A DNA stretch of 59,078 bases, counting the filler, from Catajapyx aquilonaris (Eukaryota): NCBI GenBank assembly GCA_000934665.2. It is 2 parts of 2 records of this genome, joined end to end, with 100 filler letters (N's around TTAATTAATTAA, not from the genome) between each part and the next. Parts side by side here need not be neighbours in the genome. Positions count along the whole stretch, not along the records: positions 29,555 to 59,078 come from JYFJ02004802.1; 1 more part is not named here. One strand, written 5' to 3'. The position numbers and the translations under genes are program-made. The notes beneath the pieces are model-generated. The model did not search any database and was not told the DNA's origin. It saw only the letters and a list, made by a program, of their open reading frames with translations. Positions 1-59,078 of the stretch are shown here, piece by piece. The first letter of the stretch is position 1; each line of letters starts with the position of its first letter.

Positions 1-256
1 CTCAAACCCACAGCTCAAATTAGCCGTGGGAATGATACGTCACAGATGGTCCCACCTGTCGTCCCAAGCGCTGTTTTGAACGATACGTCACAGAGGGTAC
101 GTTCGGAAACTCCTCATCGCTACCGGCGACGTCACTGATTTCTGTAACCGGATGGATTAGGCGGAATACGGGCACCGCGCCGAAGGCGCGCAAGTGGGGC
201 GCAGCCCCACGGGGGGGGGTCAGGGGGGGCGGAGCCCCACCGGGTCGCAAAGCGAG
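1..256 (+). mobile_element. Helitron-like non-autonomous element, 3' part (copy H1)
   Basis: ~128-256 matches 48764-48912 (GATTTCTGTAACCGGATGGATTAGGCGGAA...GCGCCGAAGGCGCG...GGGGCGCAGCCCC...GGGGCGGAGCCCC...TCGCAAAGCGAG|T); 5' part probably runs off the window. Confidence 0.7.
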
Positions 257-28703: not shown

Positions 28704-29454
28704 CTCGCTTTGCGAGGCGGGGGGGCTCCGCCCCCCCACGCCCCCCCTTGGGGCTGCGCCCCAATTGGCGCGCCTTCGGCGCTAATACCAGGATCACCAC
28801 TACAGGGCTGGCAACAATAACCTGGAGTATGTCGTCAACGGAGTTACCAATGAAGCATGACAAATACCACACCTGCAACAGTCCACCAACCTACCAACCA
28901 GCCAATCAACCAACAACAATGAGCGCGCCCCACAAACAACGGTGCAAGTGCAGCCGGCCCCACACACTTCCTCCGACAGTCCGCAAAAATTGGTCGGAGC
29001 GAGGTGGCAATGTGGCATCTATGTTCACAGGACACCCGTGACGTCACCACTAAAGGTGCGAGTAAAAGGCAACATGACGCAATAACAGATGACGTAGTGG
29101 AGGCGTTGAGTAGGGGAGGAGGATTCGAGGGGCGGGGGAGGCCGCCGGGGGAAGCGGGAGGTTATTGTGGGTGGTGGAGGCAATGCGATAGTGGCTCTCG
29201 TCTGTTGGCCGCTCGGGGAACCGGGGGAGTTTGCGGATATTTAATTTCGCGATCTCGGGTTTGCGTCTACATTTAATTTGGCGATCTCGAAAACGGCTGG
29301 GATATTCGCTGTTTTGAGGATTTTTGAAAATAGGAAAGCGGGTGCAAGGAATACAACGGTGTAAGTCCGAGGTCTGTACGACCTCGGGAAGTGGAAGATC
29401 TTTTCCATCCTATATCCTATATCCTATATCCTCGGATTGGGGCTTTATATATAT
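28704..29454 (-). mobile_element. Helitron-like element (copy H2), 5' tip cut by assembly gap
   Basis: Hairpin-train CGAG end at 28704; ATATATATAAAGCCCC..GGATATAGG head at gap; 29186-29454 matches 46600-46874. Confidence 0.75.
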
Positions 29455-29554
29455 NNNNNNNNNNNNNNNNNNNNNNNNNNNNNNNNNNNNNNNNNNNNTT
29501 AATTAATTAANNNNNNNNNNNNNNNNNNNNNNNNNNNNNNNNNNNNNNNNNNNN
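29455..29554. other. Artificial contig-joining spacer
   Basis: Exactly 44 N + TTAATTAATTAA (stops in all six frames) + 44 N = 100 bp. Confidence 0.93.
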
Positions 29555-30881: not shown

Positions 30882-32031
30882 AGGAACATCTGAGCCACAC
30901 ACCAGTGCGAAAATTTCTCTCCTCCCGAGGTTTATGATCCCGACTCGCTTTGCGAGGCGGGGGAGCTCCGCCGTTATCCCCGTTATTATCCCCGTTGGAT
31001 GTTGAGTACTGGCTGGATAAAAAGGGGGTGAACACCGCTGGAGAGATGGACAAGATGGGACGGACCGGAATTCACTGGGCGGCTCGTATGGGCCATAAGG
31101 ACGTGGTTCAGCTTCTGCTTGATCGAGGCGCGGACCTGGATCTGGGAGGCGGAACAGACTGTCGTACACCGCTTCACTATGCTGCGATGTTCGGGTTTGA
31201 AGGGATAGCCCGGCTTCTCCTTCAGCGTGGGGCGGACGTGACCAAGAAGGACAGACGGGATAAGACACCGAGGCAACTAGTCGCAATGAACGGCAACAAC
31301 ACGCAGCTCCTCCTCATGCTTGAGAAGAAGGAAAAGGAGCTGCAGGCCGCAGCCGAATCATCCATGAATGCTGGAAAGGTAAGGCGCAATCAAGTCAACC
31401 AAACAGTGCACTAATATATTACTCTTTCAACAGCCCGACCCGAACGATTACATCAAGGCTTGTCGTAAGGGCAAGCTGTTCGAAGTAAAAGAGTGGATTG
31501 AAGTACGGCAATTGGATGCCAAGAGCACAATGGATCACAATGGGTGGACCGGAGTCCACTGGGCCGCTTACGAGTGCAACATGGACATTGTTAAGTTTCT
31601 GCTTAACTCAGGAGCAGATGTGGACCAAGCGGACGAGGTGAACAGTCGTACTCCGCTTCATTACGCAGCATTGTATGGCCAGAAGGCAATCGCCACTTTC
31701 CTTCTGGAGCGAGGGGCCAACCCGAAAGTGGAGGACAAGGATGGCAAGATTCCTCGACAGCTTGCCATCTTCAACGGGTACCACCCACTGGCCAACATGC
31801 TGAAGAAGGAGGAGGAGGAGATGGAGCGGGAGTCGGAAGCCTCAGAGGACAAAGTACGTACCTGTACATTTGAAACCAATTTTAATCCGAACTGTACTGT
31901 ACGTGTGTCTAAATTGCTGCTATTTTCAGAAGTACGGAAAGCGGAAATCTTCGACAAGCATCAACCGAAACCAGAAGAGGAAACCCTCTTGGAGATTCGA
32001 CGGCGAAGCGGAGAAGAAGAGTGATACGTGA
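30882..32031 (+). CDS. Ankyrin-repeat gene, two tandem ANK modules; exons ~30882-31378, 31434-31853, 31930-32031; 5' frame apparently broken at 30944-30995
   Basis: TGIHWAARMG, TPLHYAAMFG, TGVHWAAYEC, TPLHYAALYG motifs; GT-AG introns of 55 and 76 bp keep frame; 5' boundary inferred. Confidence 0.75.
30944..30972 (-). mobile_element. Isolated 29-bp Helitron-like 3' terminus (H3)
   Basis: CTCGCTTTGCGAGGCGGGGGAGCTCCGCC matches the H2/H4 ends. Confidence 0.7.
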
Positions 32032-35661: not shown

Positions 35662-36617
35662 GGCTCGTCCTGAGTTGGACATTTTCGATGTGGATGACAA
35701 CAGTAGTTATGCGAACATATTGCCCTGCCAGTCAAGTAGTGGTGACATTATGCACGGAGCATGACACTACTGGTCAAAAGTTAAGGATCACCCCCAAGCA
35801 GAGGTTTTTAATTTCTCAACCTTAAACTTACAGTACAAATTGAAAGTGTGAGGTACTGTTGAAAGCTTCGTGAATAACTCTAAGAAGACGAAAAGGAACG
35901 GTCAGTCTAGGTTCAACAGAGGCGCAGATAATACCTATTTTGTTTTAAAAAACATTCTCGAACACCTACAATTTAAACTATAAATATTAATTAATAAAGG
36001 TAATCATCACGAATTGATGCTTTATAATTTTTTTATTTATGGCAAGAAGCAAACGCCGAACATAAAAGAAATTACCACAAGAATTTTAAAAACTTATCAC
36101 TCGAACTGTAATTTTTTAAATTTTCGGTACCGTACATATAAAAAGAAATGCTGAAAATTTAAAAAATACAGTTCAAGTGATAATTTTTGTAAAAATTCTT
36201 GTGGTAATTTCTTTTATGTTCGGCGTTTGCTTCTTGCCATAAATAAAAAATTATAAAGCATCAATTCCTGATGATTACCTTTATTTATTAATATTTATAG
36301 TTTAAAATGTAGGTGTTCGAGAATGTTTTTTAAAACAAAACAGGTAACGTCTGCGCCTCTGTTGAACCTAGAGTGACCGTTCCTTTTCTGCTTTGTAGAG
36401 TTATTCACGAAGCTTTCAACGGTACCTCACAATTTCTATTTGTACTGTAAGTTTAAGCTTGAGAAATTTCAAAACCTCTGCTTGGAGGTGATGCTAAACT
36501 TTTGACCAGTAGTGTAATGCTCCGTGCGAAATGTCACCACTACTTGACCGGCAGGGCAATATGTTCGCATAACTGCTGTTGTCATCCACATCGAAAATGT
36601 CCAACTCAGGACGAGCC
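35662..36617. mobile_element. Compound fold-back: outer ~100-bp arms plus inner Tc1-like palindrome (35765-36514)
   Basis: Symmetric throughout with ~24-bp centre; inner termini CACTACTGGTCAAAAGTT / AACTTTTGACCAGTAGTG|TA. Confidence 0.85.
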
Positions 36618-39255: not shown

Positions 39256-41096
39256 CTATCTCCAGAATGATGTGATTGAGAGGGTTTGGCTGGAGACCGG
39301 AAACAGTCTTTTTTTTTATTTCTCGAGCCACAAATGAAGCTCATATCGAAACAAACTAAGGTGAGCCCAAAACTTTAAGACATTTCTTAACACTCCAAAA
39401 CTTAAATCATTCAGATATGGCCGCAAGTTTTCGAGTTGTAGGGTTTTTAAAATTGGGACTTTCTTTTTTGATATTTCTTTTTTTTTACTTTTTTCAAACT
39501 GTAATGCATATTGTGAGCCCCTTGAAAACGTTTACCATCAGTACTTAATCCTTTAATTACACAGTTGTAATACTGAAGTGACCACCGCCGCCTGGGAGGC
39601 TCATCTCGAAGGAATACACGGAACTCCAACCAACACACGTCTATTCTGCTCTCAAACGTATATACACACAGCTGGCAGGACCCACACTCGGGACACAGCC
39701 ACGACAGACGTCCGACCAGGACGACGTCTCACTCCGAACTCTCTATTCCAAACAAACCCCTGGACACCAAAATAACAAAAATAGTTCAGCGTCCAGGAAA
39801 CGATCAACGATCCTGTTTCCAGGACGCTACACTACCATAATTACGCATTAACACCATTCCAATCATGTTCTCAATACCTTTCACATGCTGTTGACATGAG
39901 AGGAAAAAAAATAACAATTATTAGGAATGTGGTCCACTGCTCATTAATTTTGTTAAACTGCAAAATAGGAGTAACAGTGAGAAAAACCCCTGCTTTTAAT
40001 TTTCAATTGACGGTTACGCACATTTTAAATAATACGGCACGTATAGATCTGGCATGTAACGATACTAGCCATGCTCTAATCATTTTTTTAAATTTACAAA
40101 CAATTTATTAAATTTTGTGGCGCATCACGTCGGGGCTCAAGAAACTCTATGTGATTTTTTTAAATTCAGGTCAAAGAATATTCTCAACCTGCAACAATAA
40201 TAAATTACAACAATTGGTCACCACGGTAATCAGTTGTTGACGGTGGACAGCGTTCTGCTCCAAATTTAAGTTCTGCTACTTGTTTATTTATTTTTCCAAG
40301 TTCTGTTCACGTAGCCTGCGAACGGTGGTGATATCCCACTGCCAATTGCTGACGGTCATTTGCCATGTATAAAATTTTGTAGTGATACACCGCAGGCTTT
40401 TTAATTGACGTTTTCATGGCCGTCACAATATGCTGAGAGTTTTCAGAACAATTAATTGCTCTTAATTTGTATAGTGTTCTGTATTCCAAAATGGCGGAAT
40501 TGAACCCAAAAAAAGAAAAAAAAATGTTGGCACTGACCACCCTGTCCTGCTCCTGCCTCAGGTGGTGTCCAGGGTAGTATCCCACTCCGGCCATGGTCTA
40601 GTATCCTCTTCTTCTTCTTTTAAGACTAAAGGTCTTTTTTCCAGGCCTCCTTTTTCTTTGGAGCTCAGAACAAAACCGGACTGGAACAAAACAGGCCCGT
40701 GGTCGAAAGAGGCCCAGGGTTGCCAGACGAACACCGTTGGCAAGGGACGATGACCAGATAGATAAACAACGCTCTAATTACACATTAAACAATCAGAATT
40801 GTTTTTTAATTAAAATGAACGGGTTTAATTAGTGTAGGATTAAAATCTTAAGTTGACGCGATTTGGGGGGGGGGGGGGNNNNNGGGGGGGGGGGGTGTCT
40901 GGTAACCTTTGCAACGGTTTTTTTTGGAACATGTTGCCAACACCAGATAATTTCAATTAAATCGTATACCATGAGGGGGAAATAGGAAAATTATCATGAA
41001 TATTTTTATGGGCTTGGATTCATTAGGAGGAAGCTGTGCAATATGTTACAAAATAATAATAATAACAAGATGAAATCAGGGAGCATTATACTACAT

Positions 41097-41410
41097 AAGA
41101 GGCGCAAACATTCGATTTCCGCGTCTCTCTGTTTATGGAGTTGCCAAGGCTGGCGGCCATTTTGAAGTGTGTGGAACGCCAACGAGGCCAACAGGCAAAA
41201 ATAGGGTCCGCCATGTTTGATTCGCGCGTGTTCTTGCCGTGTAGTTCCCATGGCCGCCAAAACCATCAAAGATGGCGGATCCTATTTTTGCATGTACCCT
41301 ATTTATACCTCGTTGGCGTTGCCCACACTTCAAGATGGCCGCCAGCCTAGACAACGCCATAAGCAGAGAGAGACGAACATCAAAGGCGCCGACAGAAGTT
41401 TGCGCCTCTT
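41097..41410. mobile_element. MITE family B, copy 1
   Basis: AAGAGGCGCAAAC / GTTTGCGCCTCTT; second copy 47495-47800. Confidence 0.8.
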
Positions 41411-42327
41411 CCGTAGTATATTCTCCCTGATGAAATGGTGTGACTTGAAACTCTAGAAACATGAGCCTTATTGTGTAAGGGTTCTGCTTCTGGTATAATG
41501 AATGACATTTTTAAGCCCAGCAGATGAGAAATATGTAATGTTATGCAAGTTATGAGGAGCCAGCCCCCTAGAATCTAGACCAGGGATGGGCAAACTACGG
41601 CCTGCGAGAAGACAATTTGTGCAGCCACGGCATGAAAATGTTGAAAAATTAAAGTTGCAATATGCTGTTACTATAATATTATGTCAGAGTACTTGTAAGT
41701 TGAACAGGAGGGAAAATGTAGGTGGAAATATGGCTACGGTGATCTAAGATGATCGTTTTGTTGAAGTGCCTCATTGAATTTATTCAAAATTATACATATT
41801 TTACAATCACAAATGAATTTGATTATGTATTTTAAATGGTACCACCCAAAAACATTTAACTGAGCCTCCTCCGCTTGGGTGTTGTCTGTGTCCGTTTCGC
41901 CTCATGCCCAATGGGACACCTCTACCTGGGTGGGGTCAGGACTGCCCTGCTCAACTTCCTATTGTCTAGGTCAAAAGTGGTGGATGGGTAGCACCAGAAG
42001 GGAGGAAGAGGGAGGTTTGTGTTGAGGCTGGAGGATACGGGCCAAGGGATGATGGTGCGCCAGGTCTCTTTACGGAGATCTGACCTGGTCGGGGATCCAG
42101 CCGGACGAGAGGCCGGAGCGGGGGGGACAGTACGGGCCGTACGTGCAGTCGGAGAGGCTGCACTTGTACAGGGAACACTTACGGAGTTGATTAGACATGT
42201 GAAGGTGGTTCCGAAGTGCATAAAATTTCATACCTGAAAAGTTGGCATTGCACAGAAACTTGCACGAAATTTAATGCAAATGCTCTGTCTGCAAGGAACA
42301 AGTCAGTTTAAGTGCAATAGTGTGTAA

Positions 42328-45550: not shown

Positions 45551-45639
45551 CTGAAAGGTGTATTGGATAGCTGAGTATTCAACTAATTGGACAAACTTGA
45601 CTGTGCTAGCTGCATCATACAAGATGGCTATACATGCAA

Positions 45640-46878
45640 GTGTACAACGGTGCAAGTGCAAGGAGGGATTGTGGTTGACTTCCCATACTCTTGCTTCTAT
45701 TAACATAACTGTCATAAGTACTGCAAATTTTAATAAGTAACAGAGCTACAACAATGAGTGCGGTCGTGGTGAAATGGACAAACAGCACCTGCAACAATCA
45801 ACCAACAAACCAACCAACCAGCCAACCATCAACTCAACCAACAATCAACCAACAACAATGAGTCCGGTCGTGGTGAAATTGACAAAAAACAACTGCAAGC
45901 ACCTGCAACAATCACCCTACCCACCAACCAACCAACTCACCAACAATCAACCATCAACTCAACCAACAATCAACCAACAACAATGAGTCCGGTCGTGATT
46001 GACAAAACGCAGCTGCAAGCACCTGCAACAATCAATCAACCAACCAACCAACCCACCCACCAACCAATGAACTCAGCCAAACAACAATGAGTGCGGTGGT
46101 GGTGAAATTGACAAAAAACACCTGCAAGCACCTGCAACAATCAACCAACCCACCCACCAACCAACCAACTCACCAACGAATCAACCAACAACAATGACAA
46201 ACCACCAGCAACAAACAAACCAACAACCAACAACAAAAAACCAACAACAAAAAGCACAGCTCTCTCCGACAACCACCATGCGAGAAATGAAGCACTGCCT
46301 AACAGTGAGGATGATGCAACAGACACTGAGGATGATGCAACAGACAGCGAGGATTGCGAGTGGGGGGGAAGTGGCGTAGGTGAGAGGTGGGGGGGGAGGT
46401 GGGGAGAGGGGGGCTAAGTGTGGGGCTGGGTGGTTGTGGGGAGGGAGGGAGGGAACAATAACTGCTCGGCTGATGATTGGCCGAGAGCTGCGTAGATGGG
46501 AGGTGGGGAGTGGGGCAGGAGGAAGGAGAGGGTGTTAGGGGGGAGCTGTGAGGCTCCCATAGGGCCCCCCGTGGGAGGGAGTGGGTGGTGCTGCTGCAGG
46601 CGATAGTGGTGCTCGTCTGTTGGCCGCCCGGGGAACCGGGGGAGTTGGCGGATATACATTAATTTCGCGATGTCGGGTTTGCGTCTACATTTAATTTGGC
46701 GATCTCGAAAACGGCTGGGATATTCGCGGTTTTGAGGATTTTTGAAAATAGGAAAGCGGGTGCAAGAAATACAACGGTGTAAGTCCGAGGTCTGTACGAC
46801 CTCGGGAAGTGGTCGATCTTTTCCATCCTATATCCTCCTCCTCCTATATCCTCGGATTGGGGCTTTATATATATTAGA
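45640..46878 (-). mobile_element. Helitron-like copy H5 with internal expanded minisatellite (45752-46200); 3' end not found
   Basis: Starts TCTAATATATATAAAG directly after the H4 end; shares CACCTGCAACA..CAACCAAC..ACAATGAG unit with H2. Confidence 0.65.
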
Positions 46879-47488
46879 CTCGCTTTGCGAGGCGGGGGGG
46901 CTCCGCCCCCCCCCACACCCCCCCTTGGGGCTGCGCCCCAATTGGCGCGCCTTCGGCGCTACGCGTTCCCGCCCGGGCGTACCCAGCACCGCTAGAGAGC
47001 TAGAAATAATAACCTGGAGTTCGTCGTCAACGGAGTGACCTATTTTCCGCCTAATCCATCCGGTTACAGAAATCCATCCGTTTACAGAACCCGTGACGTC
47101 ACGGTCCACAAAGGTATGACGGTATGAGAATGCGCCCCTAGATGACGGATGGTGAAAAACGGAAAAGTGGGGTGGGGGCCAGGAGGAGTGGGTGTAACCA
47201 TATGTGAGCTGAGAGGTCTCCGGAGATGAGGGTGAATGGGCCATTGTTCTTTCCCGGCTTAACGACAAACAGATGTTCCAGGTGGAGTGGGCAAAAGTCG
47301 ACTTTTGGCCATCTCGAAAACGGCTGGGAATTTTGGCATTTTGAGGATTTTTGGACAATGTATGTCGACCGCAAGGAATCCAACGGAATTTCGACCACAG
47401 CTCTACGACCTCGGGAAGTGGGAGATCTTTTCCATCCTATATCCTATATCCTCCTATATCCTCGGCGGGGGGCTTTATATATATTAGA
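46879..47488 (-). mobile_element. Complete Helitron-like copy H4 (610 bp)
   Basis: A|TCTAATATATATAAAG ... hairpins-CTCGCAAAGCGAG|T, no TIR, no TSD. Confidence 0.8.
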
Positions 47489-47494
47489 TTAGAT

Positions 47495-47800
47495 AAGAAG
47501 CGTAAACATTCGATTTTCGCATCTCTCTGTTTGGGGCGTTGCCGAGGCTGGCGGCCATTTTGAAGTGTGGGCAACGCCAACGAGGTATATAAATAGGCTA
47601 CAGGCAAAAATAGGGTCCGCCATCTTTGATTCGCGTGTGTTCTTGCCGTATATAGTTGCCATGGCCGCTAAAACCATCAAAGATGGCGGACCCTATTTTT
47701 GCCTGTACCCTTTTCACGCCTTGTTGGCCGCCAGCCTTGGCAACGGCCCCAAACAGAGAGACGCGGACATCAAAGGCGCCGACAGAAGTTTGCGCCTCTT
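47495..47800. mobile_element. MITE family B, copy 2
   Basis: Matches 41097-41410. Confidence 0.8.
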
Positions 47801-47817
47801 CTATCTATCTTCTATCT

Positions 47818-48912
47818 TCTAATATACAGGGTGTTTATTGTAACTCTGCAAAGACTTTCAGGAGTAATAGAGGGGACCAAGACAAGTATTTTTGACATAG
47901 GAACCCGTGTCCGGAAACGCCATCTAGAGGGGGTTCATAGACGAGGAACGGGTGCGCTCAGACGCGTCACGCGGGAGGTGCTAGGTGAGCGGACTGTTTT
48001 GTTGATAGATAGATTGCAGTTGTTGCCAGGTTATTGCGTATCGCGTCGTTGTTTGCTTACAACAACGCGATACGCCATAACCTGGCAACAACAAATCCGC
48101 TGTTGGCTATCCACGCATCTCCTAGGAGGCGTACTTTAGTTGCTAGATGGCTCTGCTGTTGCCAGGTTATGGCACATCGCATCGATGTTTACTATCCGAG
48201 CCCCATCTATCAACAAAACAGCCCGCTCGCCTAGCGCCTCCCGCATGAAGCGTCTGAGCGCACCCGTTCCTTGTCTATGAACCCCCTCTAGATGGCGTTT
48301 CCGGACACGGGTTCCTATGTCAAAAATACTTGTCTTGGTCCCCTCTATTACCCCTGAAAGTCTTTGCAGAGTTACAATAAACACCCTGTATATAAAGCCC
48401 CACGCCGAGGAGGATATAGGATATAGGATGGAAAAGATTTCGCACCTCCCGAGGTCGTACAGCTGTGGTCGAAATTCCGTTGGATTCCTTGCGGTCGATA
48501 TACATTGTCTAAAAATCCTCAAAATGCCAAAATTCCCAGCCCTTTTTCGAGATGGCAAAAAGTCGACTTTTGCCCACTCCACAAGGAACATCTGTTTGTC
48601 GTTAAGCCGGGAAAGAACAATGACCCATTCACCCTCATCTCCGGAGACCTCTCAGCTCACATATGGTTACACCCCCTCCCCCTGGCCCCCACCCCACTTT
48701 TCCTTTTTTCAGCATATACGTCAGCTAGGGCGCTTTCTCATACCGTCATACCTTTGTGGACCGTGACGTCACGGGTTCTGTAAACGGATGGATTTCTGTA
48801 ACCGGATGGATTAGGCGGAACATGGGCATAGCGCCGAAGGCGCGCCAATTGGGGCGCAGCCCCAAGGGGGGGTGTGGGGGGGGGGCGGAGCCCCCCCACT
48901 TCGCAAAGCGAG
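47818..48912 (+). mobile_element. Helitron-like copy H6, split by a mariner MITE
   Basis: Removing 47827-48388 plus one TA restores TCTAATATATATAAAGCCCC; ends TTCGCAAAGCGAG|T. Confidence 0.8.
47827..48388. mobile_element. mariner-like fold-back MITE
   Basis: TA|CAGGGTGTTTATTGTAACTCTGC ... GCAGAGTTACAATAAACACCCTG|TA. Confidence 0.88.
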
Positions 48913-49323
48913 TATGTAGTATAATGCTCCTTGCCCACAGTATGAGATGACGGACCAAAAGACCATTGATGTTTTATCAGCGAAGTGTTCCAAAAATTCG
49001 CCATGTAGGTTAATTTAAGAAGTAGTAGAGGTAACTGAAATGTCACAGTCATGATCTGATTCCACATCATTCTCTCTCATACAGTTACCTTCATAATCTC
49101 TATTTACATAAAGGGCAAAGTTTGTTTATATGTTTGTTTGTCTAGGTGACTGTTGATTACATTATTAGCCTATAAGCAAGGCGCCTGAAGAGCAGGTTCC
49201 ACTGCTAGTTAACTAATAGAGATCATCTACAAGCTTACCACACAGTCGTCATCTTCTTCCATGTAGTTTATTGTGGTAATGGTGTTTATGGAATGATGTA
49301 GTTTATTAGTTACATATTATGTA

Positions 49324-56349: not shown

Positions 56350-58802
56350 GGGGTGGTCGTTGCAGCCATGGAATTGTCTAATTATTCCAAATAAATTCTC
56401 AAGTTTGTCTTGATTGAGACGGGAGGTGAGAAGATATGTGTAATTTACTTCACTTGACAAATAGTCCAACAGAGAGAGAGAGTGCTCTTTATTGTTACTC
56501 GCAATCCAAGGGCAGTAGTTGAACTGATAAAACCTCCATTTTCAGCAACACAGTGATTCTCCCACTCATCCAAATAGGTCAGGAAATTCTGCAGGAAGAG
56601 GTACTCAGTGGAGTTTTTGCGCAGAGCTTCTCGGGGGACATGGGAAGCCATGATCACTATTAGCGGTCTGATTTTATTGACGAAGTTGTATGTTGCCTTA
56701 GAAGAACCATACTGCCGCTGCACGTCTCTGTCATAGAGGAATAGGCCCTTCAGTACTTCTGAACTGAAAAGTTGAAATGCCAAGTTTACTCTCATTTTGT
56801 CGAAGTTATTTGGCTTTATGTGGGCTTTCGTGATCCTCGGCATGGCTTTTAAGGATACATTGTCCTTCGTATCACTCTTCCAAGCAGCCTCAACATGTTC
56901 TATCCGCACTTCCCCTTCCGGGACCCTTGCACCTGTAGTGACAATGGTGTTTCTCACACATTTTATCAAGTGTGGAAAGTCAGACGCAAAATAGATCGTT
57001 CTTGTAGGATCTACAGGATGTTTTACTTCTGGAACTTGAGCGTTGACTCCAAATTGTTTCCACATATTACGATTCCAACTTGCCCCATCACAGGTGATAA
57101 AATCTACGAACAGTCCTGCCTTTTCACTTAAGATAATACCTTCAACTAGCACTTTTGCTAATAGGTTTCCCTTCAAATTGCCCCTTGTTCCAAATACACC
57201 GAGAATTTGAAGCCAGTCTCCAACCAATGGCTGAAACAGGAGTACCAAGCCATGGTCAGCAGATTCATGCTTCATGGCATCTGCTGTGAATGATCCTAAA
57301 TCTACAAATCCTACTGCTTGTCCTTCTGAATTTATTTCGATGGCTTCAGACAATTTCATCTCATCCACCAATATGCCTCCATGACGTTTAAAGACATCCA
57401 TCTCTTGGATTTTGGCAGCTACAGCATTAAATGTTCTTTCATTAAATCCAAATCCCCCCTTGTAGTATCTCAGATATGACCGAAGGCAAGAAGGACTTGG
57501 TACTACCATGATTTGTTGCTTTCGGATGTGCCTATATAACTTAGGACTTCTCATTTTCATGAGGATGCACTCAAGAATCTATTCCCTGCTATACTTCATT
57601 CCTTTTGTGCTGGTTCGTTTGCTTGCTTCAAAGCAGTGCTTAACTAGTAGCTGCTGCTTCACTGGCAACATGGCTATCCTTTTTTGAAACATGCTACTCC
57701 CTATACTTCTGTTTTCATCAAGCATGGTTTTCACTTTATTTCTCAAGTCAGCAATTCTGCTTTTCAGTGTCTTCACTAAACGATTCTTGGTCTTCAACTT
57801 AGAATGCAATGTAACCATTGGCTTCTTTGGTTTGGCCCTTTGTTTTAGAGTAAGCAACACCTTTCGCAAACATTTGCAGTGTATGCATGCCTTACCAGAT
57901 TAAGGTGCAAATCCCATGCATTTTCCATGAAGCAACATGTTTTCTCCGTGATACACCTGTGCAGACTTTGGCAACTTGTTAAACTCAGACAAGTGACCTG
58001 ATCCTGCACATAGAGGCATGCCTTCTGTTTTCAGAATAAGTTCTTGAAAACTTTTAGTTGAATGTACTATGACATCCTCGATGAAAATTCCTCGAAGGTA
58101 TATCCGGCACGACACTGCGTCAACCAACTGAGTGATGCACACCATTTTTGCGGCAAATACCTTTGAAACACCCACATGTTGTTGCATCTGCGGATATTCA
58201 ACTGTGCTCGATGTACTATTTGGGCATGGATTTTGGTTATTAAATAAATATGTAGCAAATACAACAGTGCTATCGTCACTCTGCAGATAGTGTTTTGCCC
58301 AGAACCTATTAGGTGGATCAACTGAGTAGATATCTTCCAACGTCACAGACTGAGTGACATCCAATTGCAAAACAGTGGTAAGAGACGGGTCTCCCGCTGT
58401 ACTTTCATCCGAATTTTTGAACTTTTTATTTTTTGGCCCTCCATCACTCATCACTACTGATCGTGATCGTCTCTTAAGAGGGGGTTTCTTTGTGAAATAC
58501 TTGGGCAGGTTGGGAAAGATGGTAGGGACTGCATCGTCAGAAAGCACAGGGCGACCTCTAGGAATTAAGACTGTTTTCCCACCAACAATGTGCGAATAGT
58601 TCCTGATGATACACTCCTGACTAAAATGAAGTTCACATACTTTGCATGAAGCATTCAGTTCCTTGTCTTTACGGGGAATGAGCTTCTTCCAAACTTCCAG
58701 TCGTGACGGATCTGTAGGAGCGCCAAACAGGCTCACCTTATTCCTGTTTGTCTTGTAGCCACTCGAACATCCTGGTACAAAGCAATGTGAAGGTCCAGGC
58801 AT
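56350..58802 (-). pseudogene. THAP-domain P-element transposase (THAP9/P-like), disrupted
   Basis: THAP (CFVPGC...P...W...CELHF...AVPTIF); catalytic-region motifs DEM, CDG, DFPHLIK, QDKLENLFG, NDHP; in-frame TAA at 57900 and TAG at 57579, frameshift in a (CT)n run near 56470. Confidence 0.92.
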
Positions 58803-59078
58803 GATGGTATATTGGTCAGGGGTCACAGCTCACAGCCCAGACCGGACAGTTGAGCGACAGTACTATAACAGCTGCTATAACAGTACGTTGTCAGCGCACC
58901 AAAGATGAGATAAGCCTACGGCCAATTCACTGTTCCTTCTTCCTTGAAACCTGACAGCCAGCCATCCAACCAACTCACTGTAATAGTCCAGTGCAATTAG
59001 GTTTTTACATGGAACAAATTAATAACAAAGCGCCCTTTTGGGGATATGTTCAGGACATGTCCTTGAACCTGTGGACAA

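Follow-up and report, generated by a model that had tools for sequence, protein, structure and literature searches.

We propose that a repeat family in the genome of Catajapyx aquilonaris is probably a non-autonomous Helitron-like (rolling-circle) element with a HINE-like layout, in which a head is followed by tandem repeats and a tail. It looks like an odd member of the Helitron type, with an end studded with mini-hairpins, rather than a new class of element. The family is non-coding and mobile, and has a sharp 5′ head and a sharp, hairpin-bearing 3′ tail. It was studied within a single window, by which we mean the whole stretch of 59,078 nucleotides that was analysed, and which provides three heads, five tails and one empty site. 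Both the classification of Helitron-like elements and their detection rely on the ends, which either run from TC to CTRR with insertion at A|T, or carry short terminal inverted repeats (TIRs) with insertion at T|T. Since this family has neither end signature, it would escape structure-based finders.

Copies, modules and abundance

Six pieces of the family, here called copies A to F, lie in the window. They had been recognised as related in an earlier note on this DNA, and a BLAST search of the window with the complete copy E (46879..47488, minus strand; 610 bp, from the head TCTAAT... to ...CGCAAAGCGAG) bears this out. Copies E and F are 92.8% identical over 446 nt, a figure that rises to 95.4% within the 87-nt tail; the stretch of A that matches E is 81 nt long (88.9%) and that of C 29 nt (96.6%). 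Identity falls to 80% over 165 nt for the tail of B, and to 79% over 184–188 nt for the heads of B and D. Copies D and B are 92.2% identical to each other over 295 nt, and thus form a second subfamily. Profile searches started from four tails and four heads recovered no additional copy in the window.

The copies are built from three modules: a head, a variable middle and a conserved tail. The head spans about 200–300 nt and contains GGATATA repeats, as seen in the profile alignment. The middle module is best developed in D, where a CAAC-rich tandem array (45795..46197, minus strand) has a period of 109–120 bp and about 3.3 copies; a single unit of the same array is found in B (28851–28923). 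Copy B (28704..29454, minus strand) accordingly consists of a head, a C-rich stretch, one satellite unit and a tail, with the head meeting an N gap at 29455 and the tail ending at 28704, followed by T. Copy A (1..256, plus strand) is of the E/F type; the window edge removes all but its 3′ part, and its tail ends at 256, again followed by T. Copy C (30944..30972, minus strand) is a 5′-truncated fragment comprising the last 29 nt of the tail, then T. Copy D (45648..46878, minus strand) has a head (46581–46878, 92% identical to that of B), a G/C-rich stretch and the tandem array. The earlier note was right to include D, which is related and has a head, but D lacks a tail, and the position given for its 3′ limit is approximate, having been placed where depth climbs from about 16–36 to about 9,400. 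The adjoining stretch, 45579–45647, is without contig cover.

Over the tail, summed contig depth reaches about 57,000; for the heads it amounts to 22,000–149,000, set against about 35 in unique flank. These values derive from contigs of four runs from one sample and are a rough sign of abundance, not a copy number. Such depth indicates that the family is a very abundant repeat in this animal genome, and suggests that it ranks among the commoner repeats there. One contig joins a variant tail to the head-like AATATATATAAAG; it is strongly divergent.

The termini

Both ends of the element are sharply defined. The string CGCAAAGCGAG occurs five times in the window, each time exactly, where 0.39 occurrences would be expected with up to one mismatch allowed, and none of 100 shuffles reached five. 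The following base is T in all five cases, just as the earlier note had described, and the five flanks are different. The 3′ end of the family is therefore CGAG, not CTRR, in 5/5 copies. At the other end, the head string TCTAATATATATAAAG is exact in D and E (two matches, 0.04 expected), is split by a nested MITE in F, and runs into the N gap in B. Homology between heads ends exactly at TCTAAT, at the point where D meets the tail of E. The heads of D, E and F all begin with TCTAAT at this limit of homology, giving a TC start, and their 5′ flanks are A, G and T.

The last base of E and the first of the D head abut directly at 46879/46878, creating a tail-to-head junction, GCGAG-TCTAAT. Comparison of head with tail in E and B revealed no TIRs, as the earlier note had claimed, and no subterminal inverted repeats; the only inverted matches between head and tail were G/C runs that are not common to D, B and F. 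Nor was any direct repeat beyond AAAGC common to head and tail.

The insertion site

The insertion that has an empty site for comparison is that of copy F (47818..48912, plus strand), which begins with nine nucleotides of head (47818–47826) and resumes at 48389–48912 after a nested foldback MITE of 562 bp (47827..48388). The nested MITE, which is not a family member, has 189-nt arms that are 96% complementary, and inserted into a TA run of the F head with duplication of TA. The earlier note had correctly taken F as a genuine copy, but had overlooked this nested element within its head.

The 329 bp between the heads of E and F are the inner body of a second foldback MITE, 'MITE-S' (47489..47800). 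The head of E adjoins its left arm, and the extended head of F adjoins its right arm at the mirror position. An uninterrupted MITE-S at 41077..41429, flanked by a 7-bp target-site duplication (TSD), ATGAAAT, at 41070–41076 and 41430–41436, serves as a paralogous empty site for F. The end of this copy reads ...GCGCCTCTT|ATGTAGTATAATGCTCCCTG. Contigs of other genomic copies likewise leave the reference after 47800 and continue ATGTAGTATAT...; three of the four runs each have at least 41–52 such contigs among the matches listed. At F, the order is ...GCGCCTCTT, 17 TCTA-rich bases, F, one T, then ATGTAGTATAATGCTCCTTG, which is the right terminus of the host MITE-S (48914..48933, plus strand) resuming after the tail and so defining the occupied site. 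Insertion at this one site was precise, with neither duplication nor deletion. This agrees with the absence of TSDs proposed in the earlier note, at the one site where it can be judged.

The inserted DNA at F supplies exactly one T. Consequently, the element either starts T(C...) at a T|T target or ends GCGAGT at a T|A target, and the end of F may equally be CGAG in the first arrangement or CGAGT in the second. Under the T|T reading, the inserted DNA at F also starts with TC. The canonical A|T rule, to which the earlier note had likened the insertions, fails here because the 5′ flank is T. The note's head start also needs qualification: the head is sharp, but relative to the empty site F carries the 17 additional TCTA-rich bases (47801..47817, plus strand), which lie between the MITE-S breakpoint and its canonical head, and E carries a counterpart of six bases (47489–47494). 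Because E and F differ in these extra bases, the exact 5′ terminus of the E/F subfamily is uncertain.

The arrangement of E and F could in principle be read differently, as two long inverted arms of one foldback TIR transposon whose outer ends are CTCGCTTTGCGAG... and whose 'head' is internal. The two copies are indeed inverted (E on the minus strand, F on the plus strand), 92–97% complementary and separated by a palindromic spacer. Comparison with the MITE-S paralogous empty site contradicts this reading, which we consider most improbable. What separates E and F is a MITE in its own right, of which another copy, flanked by a TSD, lies at 41077–41429, and F is a discrete insertion, since the MITE-S terminus resumes right after its tail. 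Further, the tails of A, B and C lie in flanks that are unrelated, none of the three has a partner arm, and the head of D abuts the tail of E.

Occupation of both MITE-S arms could reflect a preference for a site or structure, or one arm having been copied from its partner. The MITE-S left terminus was not recognised beside the 3′ end of D, where the best match had 6 errors in 20, a score equalled by 114 of 300 random stretches. The shared position of E and F in the two arms, with its hint of sequence or structure targeting, is among the points that would suit a different ssDNA-acting or site-specific element outside the Helitrons, inserting 3′ of T and using the hairpin train as its end signal. 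Candidates include a Replitron-like, an IS200/IS605-like HUH or a tyrosine-recombinase (Crypton-like) element, possibly of an undescribed kind. Such an element would account for the failure of the family in the CTRR and subterminal-repeat tests; the single T gained at the empty site is equally compatible with a GCGAGT end at T|A; and hairpins at one or both ends are described as general to Rep-type transposons (PMC10288648). Against this stand the TC start, the 3′ hairpins, the lack of a TSD, the tandem abutment and the HINE-like modules, all typical of Helitron-like elements. Replitrons in particular are described from plants, algae and protists, and have direct terminal repeats that are absent here (PMC10288648). 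Their protein is a Y1 Rep that lacks a helicase. We therefore regard an origin outside the Helitrons as unlikely, and favour a Helitron-like element.

The hairpin train

The most distinctive feature of the family is its tail. Its last 85 nt or so comprise four triloop hairpins in succession, GCGCC-GAA-GGCGC, TTGGGGC-GCA-GCCCCAA, G(n)C-GGA-GC(n) and CTCGC-AAA-GCGAG. In E (minus strand) the train occupies 46879..46959, with hairpins, in plus-strand coordinates, at 46879–46891 (AAA, which holds the terminus), 46894–46912 (GGA), 46925–46941 (GCA) and 46947–46959 (GAA). The corresponding hairpins of A lie on the plus strand at 176–190 (GAA), 194–210 (GCA), 226–238 (GGA) and 243–256 (AAA), and those of F, also on the plus strand, at 48831–48843 (GAA), 48849–48865 (GCA), 48879–48897 (GGA) and 48900–48912 (AAA).

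Folding into four triloop hairpins, as predicted in the earlier note, holds across the copies. Among the 108 cells of the four helices in five aligned tails, 98.1% are paired, compared with 44–67% when the 3′ partners are slid. DNA folding of four 92-nt tails gave z scores of −2.1 to −2.9, and the four hairpins are present in the minimum free energy or centroid structures of the four long tails. The earlier note's equation of the CGAG end with the last stem holds fully in 3/5 copies, where the outermost pair is C-G, but not in F (T.G) or A (G.G). Stem covariation, which the note had put forward as a check, is limited to a single compensatory change (T-A to G-C, in copy A) and is not significant: 126 of 500 shuffles equal it, and evolution thus adds little support to the stems.

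Abundance and orientation of the hairpins provide a stronger signal. The loops GAA, GCA and GGA are closed by C-G, forming the cores CCGAAGG, GCGCAGC and GCGGAGC, while the fourth loop is AAA. The window contains 105 triloop hairpins with stems of at least 5 bp, 14 of them of the C-GNA-G type. Twelve of these 14 are hairpins 1–3 of the four long tails, and all lie on the head-to-tail (top) strand. Local shuffles yielded a mean of 1.27 C-GNA-G hairpins and a maximum of five, so that chance falls far short of explaining either the structure or its strand bias. The unusual stability of C-GNA-G triloops in ssDNA, which the earlier note had invoked, is backed by published work (PMC3201870, PMC13037366). 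Specifically, GCGNAGC and CCGAAGG mini-hairpins are described as extraordinarily stable, nuclease-resistant, poorly bound by single-stranded DNA-binding protein (SSB) and located at primase start sites (PMC13037366).

A LINE that recognises structured 3′ ends might instead have copied the family, which would then be a SINE-like retroposon; truncation on the 5′ side and the addition of untemplated bases at 5′ junctions would go with such copying. Copy C, as a 29-nt fragment of the 3′ end, the extra bases at the 5′ junctions of E and F, and the constancy of the 3′ ends beside variable upstream parts would all be in keeping with this. Yet the one empty site has no target-site duplication or deletion, the family has no A-rich or microsatellite tail, and Rfam returned no match, including to tRNA, 7SL, 5S and ribozymes. 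The head, moreover, is a sharp terminus common to D, E and F; direct tail-to-head abutment better fits circle or tandem formation; and the loops are of a type described for its special stability in DNA (PMC13037366). Retroposition of this kind seems to us quite improbable beside the Helitron-like reading.

Coding capacity and a proposed mechanism

The window, which has a GC content of 44% and contains assembly gaps, also carries huntingtin exons, ankyrin-repeat ORFs, a C2H2 zinc-finger ORF and a THAP9/P-element-like transposase. A Pfam scan of 51 of the 52 window ORFs of at least 110 aa, including 12 that overlap or adjoin copies (the omitted ORF spans an N gap), found no Rep, helicase or family-related transposase. 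The only transposase among the ORFs scanned was the THAP9/P-like gene, which is unrelated to the family. The top strand of E contains a 202-codon open frame that has no Pfam match and appears fortuitous: compared with the frame in F it shows many amino-acid changes, and the translations diverge before the F stop.

No Rfam family reached its gathering score anywhere in the window; near the elements, only sub-threshold miRNA-like matches were seen, in the nested MITE hairpin. A Penelope or retrozyme origin was dropped because no hammerhead was present in the Rfam search. Scanning metagenomes with hairpin 1 plus the terminus gave five loci, all of them chance matches in GC-rich bacteria. The tail end gave no locus in a viral collection, and 10 loci in prokaryote genomes, again all chance matches in GC-rich bacteria. 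A literature search on the head, tail and hairpin strings, with Repbase and Dfam outside its scope, returned nothing relevant; it yielded no paper pairing 'Helitron' with 'triloop', and none containing, on either strand, a 17-mer from the tail that the earlier note had singled out.

We propose the following mechanism. A Rep-helicase transposase encoded elsewhere would nick the top strand at the head and unwind it in the 5′ to 3′ direction. As the top strand is displaced, its tail would snap into four small hairpins, three of them of the C-GNA-G mini-hairpin type. These could halt the helicase and present a putative ...GCGAG|T site for a second cut. The ends would then be joined as GCGAG-TCTAAT, an arrangement found at the E-to-D junction, and the strand pasted beside a T in AT-rich DNA without target duplication. 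The transferred strand would carry the mini-hairpins at its 3′ end, which they may protect by keeping it free of ssDNA-binding protein or nuclease; they may also mark the point at which the complementary strand is primed. Autonomous Helitron-like elements encode a HUH (Y2) Rep fused to a PIF1-type helicase; for this family the enzyme is one that we infer, as the window ORFs scanned include no Rep/Hel or HUH protein. The earlier note's proposal of a Helitron-like lineage with a HUH Rep is supported in part: such a lineage is the most probable reading of the family, but no such protein was found among the window ORFs scanned.

Resemblance to small ssDNA viruses

The same 17-mer is found in 70 IMG/VR loci, 37 of them on contigs of up to 6 kb. 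Fourteen loci lie on contigs of 3.6–3.9 kb with one common context, which, in its sequence and in the size of the contigs, resembles the anellovirus GC-rich region. The earlier note had placed the 17-mer in just such regions: its occurrence in the viral collection is borne out by these loci, but the anellovirus identity of the 14 contigs is putative. With the seed oriented to read GGA, other C-GNA-G hairpins within 150 nt number 46 on the same strand and 7 on the opposite strand. For example, one locus (L010) has a trio of GAA, GCA and GGA hairpins; another (L081) has a hairpin identical to the first of the element, GCGCC-GAA-GGCGC; and two small unclassified contigs (L038/L077 and L053/L078) have five C-GNA-G hairpins in a row. 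ORFs beside five-hairpin trains (L076 and L077) had no Pfam match. These hairpin trains, with their same-strand bias, make the resemblance real at the level of the motif, although motifs of G-runs and C-runs are of low complexity.

In betatorqueviruses, the GC-rich region is described as containing two to five highly conserved hairpins beside an AT-rich stretch at the mapped origin (PMC12772153, 2025). In that study, a betatorquevirus initiated replication without the hairpins, and no HUH protein was found (PMC12772153). Anellovirus-like hairpin trains are conserved but functionally unexplained. The likeness to our family lies in an identical G6-C-GGA-G-C6 hairpin and in trains of two to five hairpins next to an AT-rich stretch; the difference lies in the lack of a HUH Rep in anelloviruses, as described, and in the finding that a betatorquevirus did not need its hairpins for initiation (PMC12772153).

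The convergent ssDNA-replicon signal suggested in the earlier note is retained here as a hypothesis. In its fullest form, it gives the tail a role in the ssDNA form of the element: the extra-stable C-GNA-G mini-hairpins, as a strand-specific array, would hold the 3′ end protein-free and nuclease-resistant, stop the helicase and recruit priming of the complementary strand. Small ssDNA viruses such as anelloviruses would have come by the same device independently, making it a general signature of eukaryotic ssDNA replicons. We consider this full form doubtful. If the anellovirus parallel is more than coincidence, it would point to a common function in an ssDNA stage. If it is coincidental, the family is one more lineage-specific, non-autonomous Helitron-like family.

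Comparison with known systems

MITEs and foldback TIR elements differ from the family, which lacks TIRs and shows no TSD at its one empty site; its host MITE-S has both. Replitrons are described from plants, algae and protists, with short direct terminal repeats (PMC10288648), and the family has no such repeats. The cores of the tail, CCGAAGG, GCGCAGC and GCGGAGC, are the same as those described at priming sites of ssDNA phages and plasmids, namely the G4 origin and ssiA (PMC13037366). Those are prokaryotic replicons with single hairpins, whereas the tail here has four, the fourth with an AAA loop, and no experiment is known that ties mini-hairpins to eukaryotic transposons.

The closest parallels are found among the Helitron groups. 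HLE1 elements are described as having a TC start, a CTRR end about 11 nt after one palindrome of 16–20 nt, and A|T insertion without a TSD (PMC4067079, PMC11417382, PMC7492417). Like HLE1 elements such as Helibat and Helraiser, as described, the family has a TC start, no TIRs, no TSD, a 3′ hairpin signal and a T after its 3′ end, and its non-autonomous copies have only head and tail in common (PMC4778049, PMC5876387, PMC11417382). It differs in ending with CGAG in all five copies, in having four hairpins instead of one, the last of which contains the terminus rather than lying about 11 nt upstream, and in having T, not A, as the 5′ flank at the one empty site. In the accounts of Helraiser, the hairpin acts as a terminator and the top strand alone takes part (PMC4778049, PMC5876387), and circles carry a precise RTS-LTS junction (PMC4778049). 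The GCGAG-TCTAAT abutment of E and D matches such a circle junction, and truncation and end-bypass, both described for Helraiser, would suit the 5′-truncated C and the tail-less D (PMC4778049).

HLE2 elements (Helentron/Helitron2, HINE/DINE-1) are described as having terminal or subterminal inverted repeats of 11–18 nt, a 3′ stem-loop and a T|T target, and their derivatives often have central tandem repeats (PMC4067079, PMC11417382, PMC7492417). The non-autonomous members (HINEs, DINE-1, Cg_HINE) resemble the family in the short repeat of their left flank, the satellite-like array at their centre and the palindromes of their right flank; in a T at each flank of the insertion, if the family is read as starting with TC, and no TSD; and in their very high copy number and occurrence in arthropods (PMC4067079, PMC7492417). 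At its one empty site, the family fits T|T if it starts with TC, and equally T|A if it ends with GCGAGT. Unlike HLE2, it has no pair of 11–18-nt (sub)terminal inverted repeats, and its train of four hairpins reaches the very end, in place of one 5–10-bp palindrome 8–35 bp from the terminus.

Proto-Helentron and HLE2-reverse elements provide a precedent for end structures intermediate between the Helitron groups, although, compared by description only, they come from oomycetes and Fusarium and have the stem-loop on the 5′ side (PMC11417382). The family suggests that the end rules of Helitron-like elements are looser than the two-group scheme implies. Its tail, with three textbook mini-hairpin cores on what would be the transferred strand and at the putative cleavage site, would be a clean natural test case for the role of 3′ hairpins.

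Host and nested MITEs of the probably Helitron-like copies

Two copies of the non-coding, probably Helitron-like family, E and F, lie within a single copy of MITE-S, a foldback MITE of roughly 350 bp with termini CAGGGAGCATTATACTAC..., and occupy mirror-image positions in its two arms (46879-48912). Parts of this host copy are found at 47489-47800 and 48914-48933, and both E and F interrupt it after ...CT(T/C)CTT. The TCTA-rich 5' extensions of the two copies differ, with 6 nt in E and 17 nt in F. Their mirrored placement could reflect either a target preference for the MITE-S arm or the copying of one arm onto the other. The MITE-S copy at 41 kb (41070-41436 with its target site duplications) is flanked by the 7-bp duplication ATGAAAT. 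Across contigs of four runs from one sample, the summed depth of MITE-S reaches ~60,000-115,000, compared with ~35 in unique DNA, these values being contig depth rather than copy number. Another element, at 35753-36526, is bounded by termini related to those of MITE-S.

F has itself been invaded. A 562-bp foldback MITE (47827-48388), with termini CAGGGTGTTTATTGTAAC... and 189-nt arms that are 96% complementary, sits within the TA run of F's head, where TA was duplicated upon its entry. Summed depth for the region peaks in this MITE, at up to ~290,000 (again contig depth and not copy number), and its inner hairpin gives miRNA-like Rfam matches, all of them sub-threshold.

Motifs within the family and surroundings of other copies

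ACGTCA-type (CRE-like) palindromes are present in all long copies of the family: at 47091-47104 in E and 48761-48774 in F, where the sequence is CCGTGACGTCACGG, at 29035-29048 in B, and within 30-140 in A, which carries the motif ACGTCAC three times. In E and F, an 18-nt sequence (TTCTGTAAACGGATGGAT) is additionally present twice in direct orientation, ~100-140 nt before the 3' end. The palindromes and repeats might serve as protein-binding iterons, or they might be promoter sites that the element has captured. Between the second and third of the four tail hairpins, the top strand (reading head to tail) bears G7-TGT-G9/10 runs (46913-46931 in E; 48866-48884 in F). These compete with hairpin 2 in predicted DNA folds of the tails and might, in principle, adopt a G-quadruplex structure.

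The head of B stops a few bases before its 5' end at an assembly break (29455-29554) that consists of two 44-N gaps around TTAATTAATTAA. A frame running from stop to stop (30938-31414) contains copy C, a 29-nt tail fragment, in its 5' portion and encodes ankyrin repeats further downstream. Two further ORFs (56445-58826, minus strand), which between them encode a THAP domain and TNP-like RNase H and GTP-binding insertion domains, represent a P-element/THAP9-like transposase gene that is unrelated to the Helitron-like family.

Comparable hairpins in viral contigs

Some small unclassified IMG/VR contigs (loci L077/L078, L076 and L096; those of L077/L078 are 3.2 and 5.4 kb) bear three to five G-run hairpins in a row, with GCA, GGA and GAA loops all on one strand. 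Just downstream of these trains lie ORFs that overlap one another, one of them beginning with an arginine-rich stretch, and a Pfam search of the adjacent ORFs returned no match. On a 403-kb IMG/VR contig, the same G6-C-TCC-G-C6 hairpin is present at seven scattered places (L031, L033, L044, L057, L058, L070 and L075), several of which are followed by GAAGACCCCC, suggesting that this viral contig carries a dispersed hairpin repeat.
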